Shown here piece by piece: positions 686 to 19,631 of a stretch of 25,759 nt of DNA. How positions within the stretch are numbered: position 1 is the first letter of the stretch; each line of letters begins with the position of its first letter. The translations under genes and the position numbers were made by a program. Source of the DNA: Candidatus Heimdallarchaeota archaeon (GTDB lineage Archaea; Asgardarchaeota; Heimdallarchaeia; Heimdallarchaeales; Heimdallarchaeaceae); assembly GCA_021399395.1 (NCBI GenBank), contig JAAFKJ010000087.1:1-25759 (forward strand), given 5' to 3'. The notes beneath the pieces are model-generated. The model ran no database searches. It was given only the letters and a program-made list of their open reading frames with translations, and was not told the DNA's origin.

Positions 686-3600
686 TTATCTTTTTGTAAA
701 TGAAGAAAATTGTGTTCGCTCTAAAATCCCTTTGTTTACAAGTCTGAATACGCTAGTAAGTGTTTCTTCCATTGGTGAATCTTGGTTTTTTGTGAGAAGT
801 TCGCTAACAGCTGCTTGTTCTTTCTTCTTCATATAAAGAGCAATTCTCAAATCATTTTTGTCTAATTTCTTTATTTCTCCAGTTTTTGCCTGATTAAATC
901 TAAGTGGGAAATATAACCATACATACAAAGAATCAGCTACTTTATCTTGAACTAAGTGCTTCTTCTCTTGAAACATCTCTATTCTTCCATCCCAAATAAC
1001 CTCTTTTATTTGGAAACTGTATTCGAACCACATTATTATATCAAACAATTTAGCTTGAACTTCCTTGATTATGTCTTCAGCAGTGAAAAGATAGATGGTA
1101 TATGTTTCAGATCTTGCGCTACTAACTACGAAGTTTCTATATTCAAGTTTTCGTATTTCTCCCGCTTCTGTCCCACTAATTGTTCTCCCCATTTGTGTTA
1201 CTGCTGCTAAGAAACCAGACACCAATGTTGATTCAACTGCGGATTTCTCGCCTATGTCCACTTCGAAAACTGGAAGGCTTGTTTCTGTATGCAAAATCAG
1301 TACTTTCTTCATCGCAAGCACACTATCTAGAAGACCTACAACTTTCGATTTATCTTGAATATCCATAATTTCAGAAGGTTTTCTTCTATGAGATATTACA
1401 GTAGCCATAATAGCTATTATGGTTACTACCACAAATGCAGATCCAGCAATAATGAGTATCACATACAATGGTAATGGGGGCTGCGCACCAGCAGTAACGT
1501 CAACTGCGAAACTAACAGAGATTATTTCTTCCGCATATGAAGCTTTGAAGTTTTCTTTAGTGACATCCAAAGATATGCTAGCATGTCCTGATGTAATTCC
1601 ATAATCAGCTAATTTCACGCTTACATAAATAACTCCGCTTTGGTTTGAAACAGAATAAAACTCATTAGATACTGGATTGTTGTTGATTTTTAGTGAAATT
1701 GAATCAGGTAGAATTGAACCTTTCATTATATCTGTTTCATTGATTATACTGAATGCCAAAATTACTTCTTCAGAATTGTTTGTTTCTATATTCTGCTGAA
1801 CTGGTTGAATACTATATACGTTGAAAATTTCAACTTGAATATCTACCATTTCTTGAATACTCCATGAATCATTTACTGTTAATGTTACAGTTCTCAAACC
1901 AGCTGTAGTAAGTATTGGAACAGCTCCACTAAACTCAAGTGGGTATTCGTCAAGATATCCTTCAAGATTCCAACTAGTTAAGTAACCTATACTTGCATTT
2001 TCGATTGGAGTACCAAATTCTGTGAAGAAAGGTTCAGTGTTAGAGAAGAATGAAGCTTTGACATTTAATGCATCGCCATTCATTCTTAGAATAGTCTGAG
2101 AGTCATCAGCTGTCCAGACATCACTTGAAGGGAGGGTTTCCCAAGAAGCATTAAAGATGATTGAAGATTGGATAGAAATTTTGGTAGAGTATATTCCTAT
2201 CTCTGTTCCATTTTCCCAGAACACAAATGCAGTCCAGTAACCAACGGGGTCACTTCCATAAACAGAAGGATCCAAAGAAATGTCTGAGGTATACAAACCT
2301 GAGCCACTTGATGTAATCCCTGCTTGTGTATAAGATGAAGTATCTGTGTAAGATAAATTGACTGGTAAAGAAGATTTGATAGGAAGAATATTTCCTTCAG
2401 GATCAAATAAAGTAAAGTTTAGATCGCCTGTATCTTCTAAGTTCTTAATATTAATTGACGCATAAACTGTATCACCCTCATTCCCATAAGCAGTGACACC
2501 GTCATTAGTCCAGTAACCTAGAGTAAATTCTTCACTAAGACCAATGTCATCAGATAGCGATAGGGTTTGAATATAATTCGGACTACTCGTATGAAGGTCA
2601 ATAATACCAGCATCAGTATTATTCCCTAACAGTAAGAGATACCCTTCAGAAGTTTGTGCTTTTGAGGATATTGGTGTTGAGTTGTAGTAAGCGTTTGGAA
2701 CATCATACCAATCTGCTGGTGTATAAAGAAGTTGAGTTCTATTGAAATTAGTGTATGGAGAATAGTCGACAGATTCTATGTTCCAAGTAAAATTCCAGTA
2801 AATTGAGAAAGAATCAAAAGTCGAATTATAGGCTTCAAAAATTGAAGAAGCTACCGCATCATTATAGAATGCGTAAACGTTAGTAAAATCTATCTCAATA
2901 GATGTATCTGACGTAATATTATGTGATCCAGCAGAAGAGATAGAATCAGTAAAAGTATTGACAGCTACTAAATTATCTTCAAGAGTAATTTCGTCTAAGT
3001 CAGGAAAAACCATTGCTGTACCATTTTCATCTACAGGTAACATATCTAAAATTAAAGTATGATCTATCGGAATCAAAGAAGACCAAGTAAAAGTATCATC
3101 TCTATAATAGGTGTCTCCACCAAATCCTGAACTTTTTAAGCGTCCTCTCCAACTAAACAATTTTTGAGCAGAATCATCCCATACTGTGAGATTTGCAACT
3201 ATAAAATAGAATCCTTGCTCCAAAGTAACATCATTAAAATCATAATAGGTTGTGACTCCTGGAGAAGTTAATGGATTTACTACATTGTATGAACTATTAA
3301 CATCACTTGAGATAACATTGCTCATATTTGGTTTTCCAGATGAAGTTTCAGCCTTAACAAGAAGAAGTTCTAGTTCATTATTTCCGGTGTGAGCAACATC
3401 TCCAAAAAGATCTAGATTCAAATAGGCTCCATAAAAAGTGGCATTTGACCATATTATTTCAAAACCTTGTGCAATTGCTATTACAGATGGATCAATTATG
3501 ACTTGTTCATCATCAAATAAATCTTCAATTGTATAATTATCTTGTTTTGCTCTAACTTCCGTTATTCCATACTGTAAATTTTCAGCTGTAAAACCTGATA

Positions 3601-3931
3601 TAAGGTCTATTGTATAATCAGATACAAATTTATCCTCGATATCATCATAAGTTAGATTCAAGCTGAAATCATGGTCTACTGTTAGTCTGTCTCTTGCTGT
3701 AAAAGTCGAACCCATATCTGAAACGTTTGTTACAGGATTGTAAGCATTCATTGAATATTCTGAGATATCATTAGAAGTATCTCTAGAGTAAATTGTGTCT
3801 GAAATTGGAAACTCACTATTAAATTGATTAGAATCAGCTGCTTGTAGTGATATACTACTATAGAGCATCACACCGATTATAAAACTGACAAATAATTTTC
3901 TTGAATTTATTTTACTCCTCGAGTTTCTCAT
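686..3931 (-). CDS. Large single-pass (type I) membrane protein: signal peptide, ~790-aa acidic S/T/D/N-rich ectodomain, TM helix, cytoplasmic longin-like plus winged-helix-like region
   Basis: 1081 aa. N-terminal hydrophobic stretch LFVSFIIGVMLYSSISLQA; many N-x-S/T sequons; TM PLYVILIIAGSAFVVVTIIAIMATVIS followed by HRRK; C-terminal region KKVLILHTETSLPVF...LVSGFLAAVTQMG...IRKLEYRNF resembles longin/roadblock-like domains. Confidence 0.8.
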   Translation of the reverse strand: MRNSRSKINSRKLFVSFIIGVMLYSSISLQAADSNQFNSEFPISDTIYSRDTSNDISEYSMNAYNPVTNVSDMGSTFTARDRLTVDHDFSLNLTYDDIEDKFVSDYTIDLISGFTAENLQYGITEVRAKQDNYTIEDLFDDEQVIIDPSVIAIAQGFEIIWSNATFYGAYLNLDLFGDVAHTGNNELELLLVKAETSSGKPNMSNVISSDVNSSYNVVNPLTSPGVTTYYDFNDVTLEQGFYFIVANLTVWDDSAQKLFSWRGRLKSSGFGGDTYYRDDTFTWSSLIPIDHTLILDMLPVDENGTAMVFPDLDEITLEDNLVAVNTFTDSISSAGSHNITSDTSIEIDFTNVYAFYNDAVASSIFEAYNSTFDSFSIYWNFTWNIESVDYSPYTNFNRTQLLYTPADWYDVPNAYYNSTPISSKAQTSEGYLLLLGNNTDAGIIDLHTSSPNYIQTLSLSDDIGLSEEFTLGYWTNDGVTAYGNEGDTVYASINIKNLEDTGDLNFTLFDPEGNILPIKSSLPVNLSYTDTSSYTQAGITSSGSGLYTSDISLDPSVYGSDPVGYWTAFVFWENGTEIGIYSTKISIQSSIIFNASWETLPSSDVWTADDSQTILRMNGDALNVKASFFSNTEPFFTEFGTPIENASIGYLTSWNLEGYLDEYPLEFSGAVPILTTAGLRTVTLTVNDSWSIQEMVDIQVEIFNVYSIQPVQQNIETNNSEEVILAFSIINETDIMKGSILPDSISLKINNNPVSNEFYSVSNQSGVIYVSVKLADYGITSGHASISLDVTKENFKASYAEEIISVSFAVDVTAGAQPPLPLYVILIIAGSAFVVVTIIAIMATVISHRRKPSEIMDIQDKSKVVGLLDSVLAMKKVLILHTETSLPVFEVDIGEKSAVESTLVSGFLAAVTQMGRTISGTEAGEIRKLEYRNFVVSSARSETYTIYLFTAEDIIKEVQAKLFDIIMWFEYSFQIKEVIWDGRIEMFQEKKHLVQDKVADSLYVWLYFPLRFNQAKTGEIKKLDKNDLRIALYMKKKEQAAVSELLTKNQDSPMEETLTSVFRLVNKGILERTQFSSFTKR

Positions 3932-13503: not shown

Positions 13504-14754
13504 TCACACTAATTTTATGCGAATATATAAATCAACTTCCTGCTTATTTTTCAAGACCCCACTAACATAGAAAGTCTCATAATTACGGATGCCTTGCTCT
13601 CCTAAGGTTAAATCCAATTTTACTTCTTCAGGATCTTTCTTATCTATTTTCCAGAAAGATGGTAAAAAGTCTAAATTATATTCATATCCCTTATTCTTAA
13701 TTATTGAAAGAATGTTTTCAACAGTTGTTGATCTTGGAAGTTTTAATCTTTCAATTAAAGCTGCGTTTTTACCACAAAGAACACATTTCTTATTTGGAGG
13801 TTTTTCGAAGTAGAAAAACTTACCAACCAAGCCATTATAAATTACGTATTCAGCATTTACAGTACCTAGTTCAATTCCCTTCACATGATGCAAAAGTTTC
13901 AGTGCTTCTTGCGATTGAAGTGATGCAATTACAGCATTTATCGTAATAATAGTAGGATCATGTTGATCTACCATCTTGACTACTTCGTCAATAGAGAACA
14001 GGTTTTCTTTTGGAAAATGCTCTTTAGTTAGGTTATTTGCATAGTTCAAAACAACTTTCATTTCAGCTTGAACACCTGTATCTGGTGGTCTATTATGTTT
14101 CGATTCAAAGTATAATTGTCCTTTCAATAGACAATGTGATCTTTTTCTTGGGATTCCTACAAGAGTACATGCTGCTAATGTTTCTCTTTCTCTCTCAGGT
14201 TGTGGGTCACATTGAAGACATGCATTTTGCCCTGGAAGGTATGTATAGACATGTCCATAATACGTTACTGTCCCTCCATCTATCAAGGGTTTCTTATAAT
14301 GAACAGCTCTTCTGTTGAGTTCTCCTCTTGCAGTTACTGAATCCAAACCCGAGATTAACAAATCAGCTGAAACATAGATTTCTGGATCAACATCTTCTAG
14401 ATTTGAATGATGCCAGATGTATCTACAATAAGGATTTATTCGTTTAAGAGTTCTTGCTGCAACTCTAGATTTAGGTTCTCCTTCATCGGCATCAGAAAAT
14501 AAAATTTGTCTATTTAGATTTGAGTATTCAATTATATCTAAATCTATTAGATGTAATGTTCCAACACCAGCCATTGCAAGATTCTTCGCAACTTCAGTCC
14601 CTAAACCACCAATTCCTACAATGACGACTGTAGAATCTTTCAAAGCTTTCTGATTCCATCCAGGTAATCTTAGTTGTCTATCAAATCTTTTTCTTTCTTC
14701 TTTTGAAAATGTCTCATCAAAAAAATTAGACTTGTTTTCTTTGTTTTTACTCAT
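13504..14754 (-). CDS. Ubiquitin-like activating enzyme E1 (ThiF/UBA family, UBA3/UBA2-like architecture)
   Basis: RFDRQLR, GIGGLG, DLDIIEYSNLNRQILF, PLIDGGT; Zn pairs CLQC and CVLC; catalytic Cys region AACTLVGIPRKRSHC; C-terminal ubiquitin-fold-like domain (TTVENIL...LTLGEQGI). Confidence 0.93.
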   Translation of the reverse strand: MSKNKENKSNFFDETFSKEERKRFDRQLRLPGWNQKALKDSTVVIVGIGGLGTEVAKNLAMAGVGTLHLIDLDIIEYSNLNRQILFSDADEGEPKSRVAARTLKRINPYCRYIWHHSNLEDVDPEIYVSADLLISGLDSVTARGELNRRAVHYKKPLIDGGTVTYYGHVYTYLPGQNACLQCDPQPERERETLAACTLVGIPRKRSHCLLKGQLYFESKHNRPPDTGVQAEMKVVLNYANNLTKEHFPKENLFSIDEVVKMVDQHDPTIITINAVIASLQSQEALKLLHHVKGIELGTVNAEYVIYNGLVGKFFYFEKPPNKKCVLCGKNAALIERLKLPRSTTVENILSIIKNKGYEYNLDFLPSFWKIDKKDPEEVKLDLTLGEQGIRNYETFYVSGVLKNKQEVDLYIRIKLV

Positions 14755-14860: not shown

Positions 14861-15220
14861 TTATCCAGCTGTTGAGACAGGGATAAGTAGAATAGTGTCT
14901 CCGTCTTCCACTCCATAATCTGCTAATGTATCGTCAGGATCGCAGGTTCTTCCAGCATGTGACAAGTGAAATTCATCTGGAGGTAATCCAAAGATTTGAC
15001 TGACAGTATATTTGATATCACCAACGGGCGCATCAGTAGCTACGACAAGCTTTTCCTGTTTTGGACTTGGTCCAATTGTACTTTGGAAATAAACGCTAAT
15101 CTTCTTACTTGCAGGAGTCTTAGACTTTTCAGGAGTTTTAGAGATAATTTCGTCTTCTAATACCTCTTCTTCTTCTTCTTCAAAAGATAATTCTTCAAAT
15201 TCTTCGCTCATTTTTATCAT
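14861..15220 (-). CDS. Ubiquitin-like protein with acidic N-terminal extension, ending ...STAG
   Basis: GLPPDEFHLSHAGRTCDPDDTLADYGVEDGDTILL aligns with ubiquitin [35 protein letters not shown]; adjacent to E1. The true start may be the second Met (15211). Confidence 0.92.
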   Translation of the reverse strand: MIKMSEEFEELSFEEEEEEVLEDEIISKTPEKSKTPASKKISVYFQSTIGPSPKQEKLVVATDAPVGDIKYTVSQIFGLPPDEFHLSHAGRTCDPDDTLADYGVEDGDTILLIPVSTAG

Positions 15221-15454: not shown

Positions 15455-16183
15455 ATGAATGATAAAAACAAAAAGAAACGACCTTCATCCAAGAAACCGA
15501 GGCAAAAAATCCCTATAGATTCGAAGATACCTCAACAAAAAAAACCATCTAGCAAAATACCGAAACAAAGAGTTAGCGATGAAGACCTGTTACCACCAAG
15601 AAGACAGAGATCTAAAAAAGAAACTCCTGCCCCTAGTAAGTCAAGGCTAAGACAAGATGAGATAAGAAAATCAAACAAAGGAGTAGCTAAACAAGAAATT
15701 TACACTAAGAAACCAAAAGGAGAGAGATTTGTTGATCAACAGAAGAGAAGTAAGGGTATTCCGAAACAGAAGATTCCCAAAACTAAAATCCCAAAACAGG
15801 ATCAATTAGACGAAGCTAAAGAGAAGAATATCGTTCCAGAGGATGAAGAAACAAGGAAAAAAGAAAAGCGAGAATCTATTCCACCAAGGAGGGAAAAGTT
15901 CAAAGAAATAGAAACTCTAGATTCAAAAGCTGTTGAGAAGGAAGAGAGAGAGAAGAAAGAAGATCATCCTCCTGCAAACAACAAAGACCAATTTTCTGAA
16001 ACTCAGAAGCATGAATCAAAGGCTTTACCCAAAGATGAAAGAGTAAGAGAGAAAAAGGAAAGAGAAGCACCAGCTGCTAGAGAAATTAGTGAGATTATTG
16101 AGGAGAAGCGTCCTACTCAAAAAACTCCTAGTCAAAAATATCCTCAACAGACTAAAAGACCTAAACAAAAGAAACCTAAGTGA
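15455..16183 (+). CDS. Lys/Glu/Arg/Pro/Gln-rich low-complexity, probably disordered protein with KIPKQ-like repeats
   Basis: 242-aa ORF almost lacking hydrophobic core residues; repeats SKIPQQK, SKIPKQR, KGIPKQKIPKTKIPKQ. Confidence 0.7.
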   Translation: MNDKNKKKRPSSKKPRQKIPIDSKIPQQKKPSSKIPKQRVSDEDLLPPRRQRSKKETPAPSKSRLRQDEIRKSNKGVAKQEIYTKKPKGERFVDQQKRSKGIPKQKIPKTKIPKQDQLDEAKEKNIVPEDEETRKKEKRESIPPRREKFKEIETLDSKAVEKEEREKKEDHPPANNKDQFSETQKHESKALPKDERVREKKEREAPAAREISEIIEEKRPTQKTPSQKYPQQTKRPKQKKPK

Positions 16184-16212: not shown

Positions 16213-16806
16213 TCACACAAATAGCATTAAGAGTGAAGAATAGAAATAAACTACTGCAAATACCATCAAGAAGAGATTCTCTAAGAGGAATATAGATGTT
16301 AAAATGTAGGTTGTTGGTATAATCAACAGGAGTAGAAAACCAAAAAGTTTAGGAGGGATTCCTTTTTCACTTGTGCCTTTCATTCTGATGAAAGGATATC
16401 TGATGAAAGTTCTGAATATTAGAAAATTGCTGAAGATGTAGTAAGGTAATAGAATGAAATCCACAATATTAATGTAAAAATAATATGTGGTAGTACCAAC
16501 ATCAAAAGTACTTGTCGAAATTAAGTTTGAACCATAATCATAAATTCCTAGAAGAAATTGAGTAAGAACAACAATCACAGGAATTAGCGGGACAATTAAC
16601 ACAAAAAAAACTTCGTTGAATGTAGCATTGTGTTTAAGATAGTATATACTTCGTATCATAATGAATAGTGTTAGAAAAGCAAATATTGCTGCCATTATGA
16701 AAATCTTCCCCATATCACTGTTTTCTTCTATGAAGAAATAGATAGATACACCTATCAACGATAAAGAAATAAGAAACGCAGTGGAGAGTTGTGTAATGGT
16801 TCTCAA
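16213..16806 (-). CDS. Multi-pass membrane protein (~6 TM), RING-less paralogue of the membrane domain of 17198..18328
   Basis: TTG start after AAGGTG; hydrophobic throughout; shares SD, YxKHN, FxLxxP, NxxxxxLxP and PxI...G motifs in the same order as the RING protein. Confidence 0.78.
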   Translation of the reverse strand: MRTITQLSTAFLISLSLIGVSIYFFIEENSDMGKIFIMAAIFAFLTLFIMIRSIYYLKHNATFNEVFFVLIVPLIPVIVVLTQFLLGIYDYGSNLISTSTFDVGTTTYYFYINIVDFILLPYYIFSNFLIFRTFIRYPFIRMKGTSEKGIPPKLFGFLLLLIIPTTYILTSIFLLENLFLMVFAVVYFYSSLLMLFV

Positions 16807-17038
16807 AGTAACACCTTCTTCTTTTATAGTTCTTACATCCTAATTTTTAAATTATTGTATATGTTTTTTTTGGCATTTTACTATTCTTTTATGGGTTTAT
16901 ATACTCAATTAGCTTTCGATAAATAGAGAGGATTTACATCTTAAAAAGCCTATGCGACCACCTCCAATTGGATTGTGGTCAAGCTTAAAAAGAAGATGAA
17001 TCCAACTCAAAAACAACTATCTATATATGAGAAAGTTC

Positions 17039-17104
17039 CAAGCGATCCGAAAACCGTACCTAAACGTACGGTGAACGGGGTAGGAGGGTATGTGATGTAC
17101 CCCC
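17039..17104 (+). repeat. Structured intergenic element copy A (candidate ncRNA or REP/MITE-like repeat)
   Basis: GC-rich CAAGCGATCCG-[ACCGTAC/GTACGGT hairpin]-GAACGGGGTAGGA-[GGGTAT/GTACCC hairpin]; homologous to 20493-20555. Confidence 0.65.
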
Positions 17105-17197
17105 GTAGAATTTGTGAGGACCATAGGGAATGACACACACAACGTCTACGAAATGGCTCAACTATATTTGACTAATATGCAAACATGACTAGTCACA

Positions 17198-18328
17198 TCA
17201 TAGCTTCTCAATCACTTTCTCTATATAGATTTTTACAGTTACACGATATTTTGGATTATTAACGTATCTAGTTGAGATAGGTTGATTACATCTTGCACAC
17301 AATCTAGATTTCTGGAACCAGTTAAGAAATTCATCTTCATGTGCTGGATATTTGCAATTAGGACATAGTATTATTTTTCTTGATTCTTTTTTATTAAAAT
17401 CCATATAACAAATAATACATTTCATCTCTTCTTTCTTTGGAGTACCAATTGGAAACATGCTTTTAGTAACAGTAGTTGTGGTTTTAGTAGTCTTTACCAT
17501 TTTTCTTTTCGATGATGGTACGTCAATACCTGGGGCAACTCTAGCGGAAGAGGTAGTACTTCTAGTAGCTCTCCTTGTAGTAGACCTAGAAGTTGTTGAA
17601 GTGCTTCTGGATCTTGTTGGTACAGACCTTGTCCCACTTCTCGAAGATGCTGTAACTTGACCTCTTCTTCGAGTTGCACTTGAAGATCCTGTTGAGGTAG
17701 TTCTTCTTGTAGAACTTCTTGCTGAGACTGTTACCTCTCTTCGTGACTTATTAAATGCAACAATAACAAAATATCTGAAAATGTAAACTAAGTATAATAT
17801 AACAAAGATGAAACAAACAAAATCTATTTGCCAATTGATAAAGAAACCAATCAAGAATGTCAGAATAAAGAAAGAATGGAGCAAGAAAGGAATTTTTTTA
17901 CCTCTATTTATTTTTCTGTTGATAGCAATTCCAGGCCATTTTCCTGAATAGAACTTACTGAAGAATATGGAGAGGATAATTACAGGAACTATCAAAGAGA
18001 TAGAAATTAAATTGAAGAACATTAGTTCCGAACCTCCACTTGACCGAATTGTGAAGATTTCAACAGTTAATGCAACAGGAGAGATGTAGTTTCCCATTAG
18101 CAAGACTGCATAAGGGAGTAGTAGAAATTGACTACTAGCTAAAATGGAGTTGTGTTTCTTATAGTGTCGTCTTTCCAGGAGAAATTTTAGAGCTGCTACT
18201 GTATACAGTGTAATAAAGAAAATCATTAACGTTGTTGCCAAGTCACTTTGAATAATTAGATATAGAATCCCTACGGTTAAACCTACAATTGATATCGCTA
18301 AGTAGGTTTTCCAATTATTCAATTCCAA
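17198..18328 (-). CDS. Multi-pass membrane RING-variant protein (putative E3 ligase)
   Basis: About 6 N-terminal TM helices, a long S/T/R-rich linker, and C-terminal CIIC-x14-CPNC-x3(KYPA)H-EDEF-LNW-x6-CARC; immediately downstream of E2 and JAMM genes. Confidence 0.85.
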   Translation of the reverse strand: MELNNWKTYLAISIVGLTVGILYLIIQSDLATTLMIFFITLYTVAALKFLLERRHYKKHNSILASSQFLLLPYAVLLMGNYISPVALTVEIFTIRSSGGSELMFFNLISISLIVPVIILSIFFSKFYSGKWPGIAINRKINRGKKIPFLLHSFFILTFLIGFFINWQIDFVCFIFVILYLVYIFRYFVIVAFNKSRREVTVSARSSTRRTTSTGSSSATRRRGQVTASSRSGTRSVPTRSRSTSTTSRSTTRRATRSTTSSARVAPGIDVPSSKRKMVKTTKTTTTVTKSMFPIGTPKKEEMKCIICYMDFNKKESRKIILCPNCKYPAHEDEFLNWFQKSRLCARCNQPISTRYVNNPKYRVTVKIYIEKVIEKL

Positions 18329-18350: not shown

Positions 18351-19070
18351 TTAATCCTTATTCAGCTTATTTTTCATGAACATGTTAATTGACTCAAAAC
18401 ATGCTTCACTGCTCATGCCTTTAATCTCGCAAGAAAGTTCATAGTAATTCTTTCTATCTCGATGAATTCGAAATACTCCTACCCCATAATTATCTGGAGC
18501 AATCATCAGGGGGTCGATGACTAGAGCTATTGACTTATTCCAAAATGTCTGATATCTACGATGTGTTTGGAAGTCATCACCACTGAGAAATGGTGTATAA
18601 CTTGGATGTGAATGAGCCCAACCTATGATAAAATGTTCGTTATCTTTTTTATTGAATATTTCAGTGAAAATCCTTTGATCTACTATCTCTACACTTACAG
18701 CATCACCTTGGTCAACAGGCCAATAGTCTTCAACATACACCTGTTCTAATGGAGTATCTTCGTGTCGTATTTTACCTGTCAATAGGCCTATAATTTCTAC
18801 CCACTCACTTTTTGGGATTCCCTTGTTAGCATAGGTTAAGGAATGTTTAGCAAGTTTGAGATAGGCTTTAGGATTTATCATTATTTCAGATCTTGTTTGT
18901 ATTTGAAGTGCTTCTTCTGTTATTGATTCAACACTAATGTCCTCTGAACTTTCTACTTGATCTTCAAAGATTTCATCTATTTTATGAAGACCTAGTGCTT
19001 TTTCTATTGCTTCAACTTTTTTCAAAAGAATTTTGTATTCTTCTGGAAGATTGTCTTCTTCTTTTCCCAT
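18351..19070 (-). CDS. JAMM/MPN+ metallo-isopeptidase (Rpn11/CSN5-like)
   Basis: VEIIGLLTG (catalytic Glu), GWAHSHPSYTPFLSGDD (HxH-x7-S-x2-D), ALVIDP; GGTGA SD upstream. Confidence 0.93.
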   Translation of the reverse strand: MGKEEDNLPEEYKILLKKVEAIEKALGLHKIDEIFEDQVESSEDISVESITEEALQIQTRSEIMINPKAYLKLAKHSLTYANKGIPKSEWVEIIGLLTGKIRHEDTPLEQVYVEDYWPVDQGDAVSVEIVDQRIFTEIFNKKDNEHFIIGWAHSHPSYTPFLSGDDFQTHRRYQTFWNKSIALVIDPLMIAPDNYGVGVFRIHRDRKNYYELSCEIKGMSSEACFESINMFMKNKLNKD

Positions 19071-19100: not shown

Positions 19101-19631
19101 TTACCAGAAAGACTTTGCATATTTCTTGCTGATAGTATTTGCTTTTTTAATGAATTTCTTCTTATTATTTAAAAATTCCAAAGCAGCTTCTTTATTGAAA
19201 ACATCCTTTGGATTAACATAAGCTCCATCTATATTGAACATAGCTAGAATTGAGTGTACAACTGTAGTGATATTCTTTGCAGGTGACCATCCATCATGTT
19301 TTCCTATTAACTCATTGTCAACTAGAGCGAGACAAATGTTACGCTTCTTTGGATATTCTTTAGGATTTGGCCAGAAATTAGGATGCCAAATTGGTGTATG
19401 TAGTCTTACAAATGGAGGTTTCATAGGATAATTTGGTCCAAAGAATATCTCCAACTTATATTTTCCTCCAGCATATGGAGTGCCTTTTGGACCTACAAAC
19501 CCGACTGCAAGATGATCCATAGACTTCTTCTTTACAGGAAAAGATTTAACTTGAGCTATTATCCCTTCTTTGTGCAATTTTCTAAGTGCATCATAGTCTT
19601 TTATTACGCGCTGTTTTCGCATTATTGCCAC
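19101..19631 (-). CDS. Ubiquitin-conjugating enzyme E2 (UBC fold)
   Basis: GPKGTPYAGGKYKLEIFFGPNYPMKPP, TPIWHPN, catalytic ICL, WSPA, NKEAA. Confidence 0.95.
   Translation of the reverse strand: MAIMRKQRVIKDYDALRKLHKEGIIAQVKSFPVKKKSMDHLAVGFVGPKGTPYAGGKYKLEIFFGPNYPMKPPFVRLHTPIWHPNFWPNPKEYPKKRNICLALVDNELIGKHDGWSPAKNITTVVHSILAMFNIDGAYVNPKDVFNKEAALEFLNNKKKFIKKANTISKKYAKSFW

Follow-up and report, generated by a model that had tools for sequence, protein, structure and literature searches.

A predicted membrane RING ligase and its adjoining RING-less paralogue in a Heimdallarchaeial ubiquitin operon

In the genome of a Candidatus Heimdallarchaeota archaeon (contig JAAFKJ010000087.1), a gene for a membrane protein with a C-terminal RING-like domain is followed by a gene for a second membrane protein that ends with its sixth helix and has no RING. 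Are the two membrane domains related, and what might a RING-less protein do beside a predicted ubiquitin ligase (E3)? The window analysed is the whole stretch of DNA from position 1 to 25,759 of this contig (25,759 nucleotides, G+C 30–39%). The interval under study, 16213–18328, is bounded exactly by two minus-strand open reading frames (ORFs), 17198–18328 (376 aa) and 16213–16806 (197 aa, TTG start), as they had been placed in an earlier inspection of the letters without database searches (the sequence-only reading). Both ORFs sit within a ubiquitin-type gene cluster, with Pfam-recognised genes for a ubiquitin-conjugating enzyme (E2), a JAB/MPN metalloprotease, a ubiquitin-like protein and an activating enzyme (E1) as neighbours. 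From the ORF, its homologues and an AlphaFold2 model, the 376-aa protein is predicted to be a membrane RING E3 comprising a six-helix membrane domain, a disordered linker and a RING; the 197-aa protein consists solely of the same kind of six-helix membrane domain. Our best reading, which we hold with a slight leaning only, is that the RING-less paralogue serves as a non-catalytic subunit, associated with the RING protein through the membrane domain of the latter.

The sequence-only reading had proposed tandem paralogy from five collinear motif matches. As single sequences the two proteins gave an insignificant BLASTP match (E 0.32, 20% identity over 64 residues). Family profiles were aligned by hhalign and compared with reversed and shuffled controls. 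Narrow family profiles scored 37.8 (E 5.7e-5, 127 columns); reversed profiles scored 12–13, 60 shuffles of 22-column blocks averaged 18.6 (sd 3.4, maximum 29.3), and none of these block shuffles, nor any of 60 column shuffles, attained 37.8. On widening the profiles with divergent RING-less members from a library-wide hidden Markov model (HMM) search and with Loki-type RING proteins, the score was 70.3 (E 4.8e-10, probability 96.6%, 174 columns), against 14.2 for the reversed profile and a mean of 27.1 (maximum 47.6) for 40 shuffles of 25-column blocks; 0/40 of these and 0/40 of the 10-column shuffles reached the real score. Two independently built alignments, A4 (28 RING-less proteins) and A3 (22 membrane domains of RING proteins from the loci), matched each other with a probability of 98.1% (E 1.2e-13, score 92.7, 173 columns, 1–189 versus 6–188), and a narrower alignment, A1, matched A3 at 72% (E 3.4e-5). 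Positions 1–71 of A4 and A3 were aligned without a gap, with Y56, K58, H59, N60 and F68 coinciding. An HMM made from RING-fused membrane domains alone also matched sister-family RING-less ORFs at E 1e-8 to 1e-11 in a small six-frame ORF set. All five motif pairs were recovered in the same order in the profile-profile alignments, namely IIQSDLATTLMI of the RING protein with IEENSDMGKIFI of the RING-less protein, HYKKHN...LLP with YYLKHN...IVP, FFNLISISLIVP with YINIVDFILLP, KWPGIAINRKINRG with RYPFIRMKGTSEKG, and FIFVILYL with MVFAVVYF.

AlphaFold2 models of the two proteins were compared by the order of their secondary-structure elements. The membrane domain of the RING protein (aa 1–200; 17729–18328, minus strand), delimited by predicted secondary structure and profile homology, was modelled from a 53-sequence alignment with a predicted local distance difference test score (pLDDT) of 55–96 per 10-residue block (whole-protein mean 72.4). 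Six long helices span residues 6–203, the third and fourth being separated by a beta-hairpin: helices at 6–27, 30–58 and 67–82, the hairpin at 92–105, helices at 107–111 and 113–128, a loop, and helices at 145–165 and 170–203. The RING-less model (pLDDT 81.0, predicted template modelling score 0.74) consists of the membrane domain only, with helices at 2–26, 30–58 and 66–86, a beta-hairpin at 95–113, helices at 114–118 and 120–136, a loop, and helices at 152–175 and 178–196. Both models run through three helices, a beta-hairpin, a short helix, a helix, a conserved loop and two helices, an element order that bears out the description of two domains of about six transmembrane helices and about 190 aa.

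Could the collinear motifs reflect merely the shared composition of hydrophobic helices, with no homology? The BLASTP result, a profile identity of just 14–19% between the two families, and HMMER profile-to-sequence searches of large libraries, which left the families unjoined, would all agree with this. However, hhalign aligned 173 columns at E 1.2e-13, reversed profiles and block shuffles that preserve the hydrophobic segments never attained the real score (0/60 and 0/40), the HMM cross-matches were direct, and the element order was identical, including the unusual beta-hairpin between helices 3 and 4. We find shared composition scarcely credible as an explanation, and regard the two membrane domains as true paralogues, established by profile comparison and predicted models.

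Lys and Arg in the RING-less protein are concentrated at the N-terminus and in both conserved loops, and the helix 1–2 turn, the hairpin and the helix 5–6 turn are acidic or neutral; the RING protein has the same charge pattern. Under the positive-inside rule, this pattern would put the N- and C-termini of both proteins in the cytoplasm, and with cytoplasmic termini the RING and both conserved loops should lie on the cytoplasmic side, as far as topology can be read from sequence and predicted helices. The conserved loops of the RING protein, ERRHYKKHN and KWPGIAINRKINRG, are accordingly placed among the predicted cytoplasmic segments, and its beta-hairpin would face outward in the model.

The membrane family had not been recognised from the letters, and the searches agreed, giving no match to curated or solved families: none was found for the membrane domain in Pfam, NCBIfam or the PDB. 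In PDB profile searches A3 had no match at E ≤ 10 and A4 had MrpG alone (E 0.016). Member-by-member Pfam searches returned scattered weak matches to TraL, TerC, EMC6 and MotB_plug, each from one or two members. Foldseek comparison of the RING-less model with the PDB gave a best E of 0.27 and a TM of ~0.2; the fold matches lie within the noise band of the tool, so no fold was assigned, and the absence of a match is not proof of a new fold. A search of the ESM Atlas gave a score of 0.84 between the RING-less protein and unnamed clusters, although recognition fell short of the useful range; for the RING protein's membrane domain it gave no usable match.

The C-terminal domain of the 376-aa protein (aa 296–376; 17201–17443, minus strand) was modelled as a compact unit (pLDDT 83–92). 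It has the pattern C-x2-C-x14-C-x2-C-x4-H-x2-E-x10-C-x2-C, and the positions C304, C307, C322, C325, H330, E333, C344 and C347 are all invariant and have RING spacing. I305 and W337, which we take to be the hydrophobic E2-contact positions of RING domains, are invariant in 53 sequences, and W337 aligns with the Trp of RNF24. Among PDB sequences the best match was the RING-H2 domain of RNF24 (2ep4_A, E 9.9e-5), with RNF38 at E 0.017, and RING/U-box structures ranked first in both structure searches of the domain, which places it with the RING/U-box fold. Compared with the RNF24 RING-H2, it has an invariant Tyr in place of the fourth-ligand His, a further invariant Cys two residues ahead of the third ligand, and an invariant Glu at the sixth position; since the sixth ligand position holds Glu instead of Cys or His, we call the domain a variant RING. 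Its ligand order, C4-H-x-C2, is similar to the C4HC3 arrangement given for prokaryotic RINGs in the accessible part of PMC11354881. The invariant positions, the RNF24 match and the structure searches together uphold the claim that one membrane domain is fused to a RING-like domain and the other is RING-less. E3 activity of the RING-like domain is predicted from its sequence and from the genomic association with E1, E2, ubiquitin and JAB genes. The RING protein had 61 homologues, of which the named ones were Heimdall or Asgard.

Between the last membrane helix and the RING lies a Ser/Thr/Arg-rich, Lys-poor linker (~aa 201–286; 17471–17728, minus strand), predicted to be disordered with a pLDDT below 50 over residues 200–286. 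Across 55 family members it contains 38% Ser+Thr and 947 Arg versus 464 Lys, against 965 Lys versus 755 Arg outside the linker in the same proteins. A Lys-poor linker may limit self-ubiquitination, although this is speculation. In the present protein ~75 consecutive linker residues are without Lys, despite the AT-rich genome.

The RING-less protein had 51 homologues, and the closest named homologues of both proteins were labelled Heimdallarchaeaceae or Heimdallarchaeota. Its invariant residues fall in two loops, A61-T-F-N-E65 between helices 2 and 3 and R136-Y-P-F-I-R141...S146..G149 between helices 4 and 5. Loop 137–151 is the most conserved stretch of the protein, yet it has the lowest confidence in the model (pLDDT ~50–63). 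The most divergent RING-less member (P0130, 239 aa) has a Ser/Arg-rich C-terminal tail resembling the linker of the RING protein; retention of this tail fits an origin of the RING-less protein by loss of the RING, and P0130 is possibly an intermediate.

The distribution of the two genes was surveyed in 400 genomes of the phylum, this genome included. The RING-less family was found in 54 of them, all in four Heimdallarchaeia families (this genome aside, 23/30 genomes of f1, 9/12 of f4, 19/22 of f5 and 2/2 of f6), and was absent outside these four, including from all 135 genomes of the largest family. The RING-protein profile had matches in 251/400 genomes at E ≤ 1e-3. The weaker of these cover the RING region only, or at most part of the linker, as do the three extra matches in this genome, and of the best 150 places listed (E ≤ 1.5e-65), which come from many families, almost all extend over the full RING-protein model. 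Full-length membrane-RING matches were present in 120/135 genomes of f20, a large non-Heimdall family. All 15 non-Heimdall Asgard loci fetched had E1, E2, JAB and membrane-RING genes in this order, 14 of them with a ubiquitin gene upstream, and none had a separate RING-less gene; across Asgard archaea, Ub-E1-E2-JAB operons end with the membrane-RING gene. From this distribution we take the membrane-RING E3 for a feature of the operon in Asgard archaea at large, and the RING-less copy, which is specific to Heimdallarchaeia, for a later addition. This contrast goes beyond the sequence-only reading.

Gene linkage was examined in 43 of the 54 genomes with the RING-less gene. In 34/43 the RING-less gene directly follows the RING gene on one strand, the intervening gap measuring −14 to 391 bp (median 73 bp; −14 to 159 bp in the 33 genomes other than this one), and three of these pairs overlap. 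Co-occurrence was counted in the 67 genomes of the four families, this one included. A membrane-RING match with an E of 2.7e-30 or better was found in 50 of the 54 genomes bearing the RING-less gene; the best E values of the four exceptions were 8e-13, 3.7e-4, 2.3e-4 and 3.6e-12, and in the first two the locus lies on short contigs. Among the 13 genomes that lack the RING-less gene, no membrane-RING match was better than 1.5e-15; two of these genomes are single-contig assemblies, 92–93% complete. This pattern indicates that the two genes are kept or lost together. The co-occurrence analysis put forward with the sequence-only reading thus turned out in its favour, and most genomes have the two genes side by side in one orientation.

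A tree of 50 membrane domains (LG+C20, 206 columns kept) placed the RING-less proteins in one clade and the Heimdall RING-fused domains in another, each with 100/100 support. Both clades have long stems (3.01 and 2.81 changes per column, respectively) that leave a short-branched set of other Asgard membrane-RING domains, indicating that both copies diverged fast where the duplicate exists. Fast change of both copies would be expected if a self-associating domain had become two mutually adapted partners, and equally if one copy had taken a new job. In a mirror-tree comparison of 31 gene pairs, r was 0.91 for RING-less protein and membrane domain, 0.91 for RING-less protein and RING, and 0.89 for membrane domain and RING; shared phylogeny explains all three values, so the comparison is uninformative.

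If the RING-less protein were instead a tandem duplicate with a membrane job of its own, as a transporter, receptor or scaffold, its adjacency to the RING gene would be left over from the duplication and would not point to a complex. The gene does persist apart from the RING gene in two genomes (G044, G052) and convergent with it in two others (G051, G055), the neighbours at dislocated sites are unrelated, the RING protein does not share its conserved loops (ATFNE, RYPFIR..GTSEKG), and its clade has a long stem. However, a full-length membrane-RING gene was found in 0/13 genomes without the RING-less gene and in 50/54 with it, 34/43 pairs are co-directional neighbours at a median gap of 73 bp with three overlapping, and the RING-less family is confined to lineages with the membrane-RING operon. 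We consider an independent function unlikely. The neighbours of the dislocated RING-less genes (WD40, caspase-like, Fe-S assembly and aldolase genes) gave no functional hint.

Several observations weigh against joining the two proteins in one ligase. Adjacency is missing in 9/43 genomes. In two of these the genes are convergent and 1.1–1.4 kb apart, and in the other seven no RING gene was seen beside the RING-less gene, although two of the seven could not be judged since the contig ends within 319 bp; in G044 and G052 no RING gene lies within ~8 kb upstream. Adjacency is thus not universal and co-transcription is not required, and in the present window a repeat insertion separates the two genes. 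The co-occurrence counts make the evidence look stronger than it is, since related genomes do not count as independent cases. In the tree the RING-less clade is not sister to the Heimdall RING-fused clade, and the deep join has a support of just 51/83, too little to date the duplication. The two families were not joined by profile searches of large libraries: of 1.84 billion proteins, 23 representatives matched the RING-less profile, none of them RING-fused, and the HMMER profile of the membrane domain found 55 proteins at E ≤ 0.01 in a 5.8-billion-sequence database, none of them RING-less. The latter search scored only the 7,998 candidates sharing most words, 110–385 aa in length, and the names given to its 55 matches were all Heimdall-, Thor- or Asgard-labelled, with no eukaryotic names. 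As to the RING itself, the sixth of the putative zinc-ligand positions is an invariant Glu (E333) where the other seven are Cys or His; the Pfam matches to zf-RING_16 (E 0.0057, 16.7 bits) and Prok-RING_1 (E 0.0096, 16.3 bits) are below their cut-offs of 27.4 and 29.1.

The sequence-only reading had inferred a hetero-oligomeric membrane E3 whose non-catalytic subunit would recognise substrates, form a channel or inhibit. It is supported in part: gene structure, paralogy, the RING-like character of one protein, operon context, and conserved adjacency and co-occurrence are shown, and topology, E2 recruitment, the heteromer and the role of the RING-less subunit are predicted. With these points taken in, the reading that we favour is as follows. 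The two genes would form the membrane arm of the Heimdallarchaeial ubiquitin operon. The 376-aa protein would be a polytopic membrane RING E3 with a six-helix anchor and both ends in the cytoplasm, in which a flexible Ser/Thr/Arg-rich linker of ~85–110 residues tethers the C-terminal RING. This RING would recruit the ubiquitin-charged E2 of the operon to the cytoplasmic face of the membrane. In the four Heimdallarchaeia families the membrane domain would have been duplicated and one copy would have lost its RING, giving the 197-aa protein directly downstream. Within the membrane, the RING-less copy would form a hetero-oligomer with the RING protein's membrane domain, and as a subunit it might tune the recognition of membrane-embedded or membrane-proximal targets, or supply it. 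Its two very strongly conserved, predicted cytoplasmic loops are likely contact surfaces for partners or targets.

RING-less paralogues may also act as dominant-negative decoys. In place of being a stable structural subunit, the RING-less copy might compete with the RING protein for self-association or for substrates and so damp the ligase, or might itself be the dedicated substrate or sensor of the ligase. A shared fold with the catalytic domain absent, and a position downstream in the same operon, would suit such a role, and the high conservation of loop 137–151 at a pLDDT of ~50–63 would fit a loop that becomes ordered only upon binding. No result tells this from a stable heteromer, and strict co-retention fits a required partner as well as a brake. 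We think a regulator or decoy distinctly unlikely, and keep to a non-catalytic subunit as the preferred role.

The pair may be set beside known membrane ligases. In the Hrd1-Der1 system of endoplasmic reticulum-associated degradation (ERAD), a polytopic protein with a cytoplasmic C-terminal RING works with a RING-less polytopic partner of ~200 residues. The likeness of the present pair to Hrd1 and Der1 (Derlin) is one of outline; the membrane domain has no sequence relative in the PDB, and membership in this or any other of the systems compared here is not supported. Pex2, Pex10 and Pex12 form one ligase through paralogous membrane domains, and all three carry a RING. The membrane domains here are likewise paralogous; they show no sequence or fold match to the Pex proteins, and a Pex2/Pex10/Pex12-type ligase was rejected since the 197-aa protein ends at its sixth helix without a RING and 0/23 representatives are RING-fused. 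MARCH or RING-CH ligases have an N-terminal C4HC3 RING followed by membrane helices; this type was also rejected, the RING here being C-terminal (aa 296–376) and following six helices. Pairs of a catalytic and a non-catalytic paralogue are common in the ubiquitin system, as in Rpn11-Rpn8, Ubc13-Mms2, Ring1b-Bmi1 and BRCA1-BARD1, which dimerise via soluble domains of the catalytic type. In contrast, the duplicated unit here is the membrane domain, and the catalytic RING is wholly absent from one copy.

Archaeal ubiquitin operons have been described from Caldiarchaeum subterraneum and from Asgard clusters of ubiquitin and endosomal sorting (ESCRT) genes (PMC9192718, bioRxiv 10.1101/2023.07.25.550441, PMC11354881), and the gene set given in the accessible parts of these sources is the same as here: a ubiquitin-like protein, a ThiF-type E1, a UBC-type E2, a JAB/MPN protein and a RING protein. 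In those same parts the RING E3s are treated as small soluble proteins, and the Helarchaeia RING E3, which has an N-terminal loop, was purified as a soluble protein (bioRxiv 10.1101/2023.07.25.550441). The present protein differs from these soluble E3s in that its RING stands behind a six-helix membrane domain, with a RING-less paralogue adjoining. The same arrangement is not described in the accessible parts of PMC9192718, bioRxiv 10.1101/2023.07.25.550441, PMC13328587, PMC13734099 and PMC11354881. A search of the full-text literature, supplements and subscription papers aside, found no account of a membrane-embedded RING E3 in an Asgard ubiquitin operon or of a RING-less paralogue, although a mention in a gene-cluster table is possible. 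These results suggest a two-part membrane ligase in an Asgard ubiquitin operon that is previously undescribed in the literature examined.

The ubiquitin operons of Asgard archaea are studied as precursors to the ubiquitin system of eukaryotes. If the RING protein of the operon is integral in the membrane, the last step of the cascade is placed at the membrane. In eukaryotes, ubiquitin acts at membranes in ESCRT sorting and in ERAD. By analogy, the pair might be a prokaryotic functional counterpart of Hrd1-Der1-like machines, which would recognise, and perhaps partly extract, membrane proteins for ubiquitination and then for ESCRT sorting or degradation by Cdc48 and the proteasome; we rate this as very unlikely. 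Were it true, archaeal ubiquitination would have been centred on the membrane from its beginnings, since across Asgard lineages the E3 of the core ubiquitin operon is the membrane-RING protein. As the system occurs both with the non-catalytic RING-less paralogue and in its absence, nature has set up the experiment, and the parts are small and encoded in one operon, which makes the question directly testable by reconstitution.

The other genes of the cluster were assigned by Pfam. On the minus strand, the E2 gene (19101–19631, 176 aa; UQ_con, E 1e-27, 96.9 bits, cut-off 27) is the first in this arm of the operon and is followed by the JAB/MPN metalloprotease gene (18351–19070, 239 aa; JAB, E 2.1e-12, 47.3 bits, cut-off 22.5). 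The translation of the latter contains the stretch HSHPSYTPFLSGDD, which we take to be the JAMM motif, and the protein is a candidate Rpn11-like deubiquitinase or ubiquitin-processing enzyme. Beyond the RING-less gene, also on the minus strand, are the genes for a ubiquitin-like protein (14861–15220, 119 aa; ubiquitin, E 3.4e-8, 33.6 bits, cut-off 25.4) and an E1-like activating enzyme (13504–14754, 416 aa; ThiF, E 3e-57). The ubiquitin-like protein has an acidic N-terminal extension of ~50 residues and the C-terminus ...STAG, without a tail beyond it; the ubiquitin of Helarchaeia has a short propeptide after Gly-Gly, according to the accessible part of bioRxiv 10.1101/2023.07.25.550441.

Between the RING-less and ubiquitin-like genes, a Lys-rich low-complexity ORF of 242 aa (15455–16183) runs on the plus strand. 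Pfam and NCBIfam searches gave no family match for it. Its position and orientation are kept in same-genus loci (phmmer E 1e-139 to 3e-9). It could be a substrate or regulator of the ubiquitin operon, or alternatively a frame held open by AT-rich composition, and its membership of the ubiquitin system is uncertain. Farther off in the window, an ORF of 1081 aa (686–3931, minus strand) had no Pfam match at E ≤ 0.01.

Variants of the operon were seen in other lineages. In loci L039–L048 of the sister family f5 (e.g. L039 12485–13654), two ubiquitin-like genes lie upstream of E1, the JAB protein has 270–306 aa, and the order on one strand is Ub-Ub-E1-E2-JAB-membrane RING-RING-less. Near the operon in non-Heimdall loci are ORFs of 264–273 aa that have a ubiquitin-like match (E 3e-11 to 7e-9) and, in a crude hydropathy count, a pair of hydrophobic segments (L052 11311–12105, L053 1119–1940, L055 1097–1891, L064 1092–1901), which from their sequences may encode a membrane-anchored ubiquitin-like protein. 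One non-Heimdall genus has an ORF of 219 aa with five hydrophobic segments near the membrane-RING gene (L057 7958–8617, minus strand; L065 5320–5979, plus strand), and in L065 it is convergent with that gene and adjoins it. Neither membrane-domain HMM matched these 219-aa ORFs at E ≤ 0.01; profile-profile comparison was not made.

The gap between the RING and RING-less genes of the present window (16807–17197, 391 bp) is enlarged by a dispersed repeat (core ~17040–17189) that has 26 further matches in the same genome at 68–89% identity. Metagenome contig depth in the bin was 307 over the core (17053–17133) versus 6–8 in the flanks; in four DNA runs the contigs are interrupted at the repeat, and not one covers the stretch in full. 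Searches of the repeat for an Rfam match (E ≤ 0.1), for terminal inverted repeats of more than 10 nt and for a Pfam match to the 52-aa ORF inside it were all negative. An invariant core is common to seven aligned copies, and in their consensus fold (−40.2 kcal/mol) 7 of 44 pairs have compensatory double changes; the repeat may be a structured-RNA mobile element.

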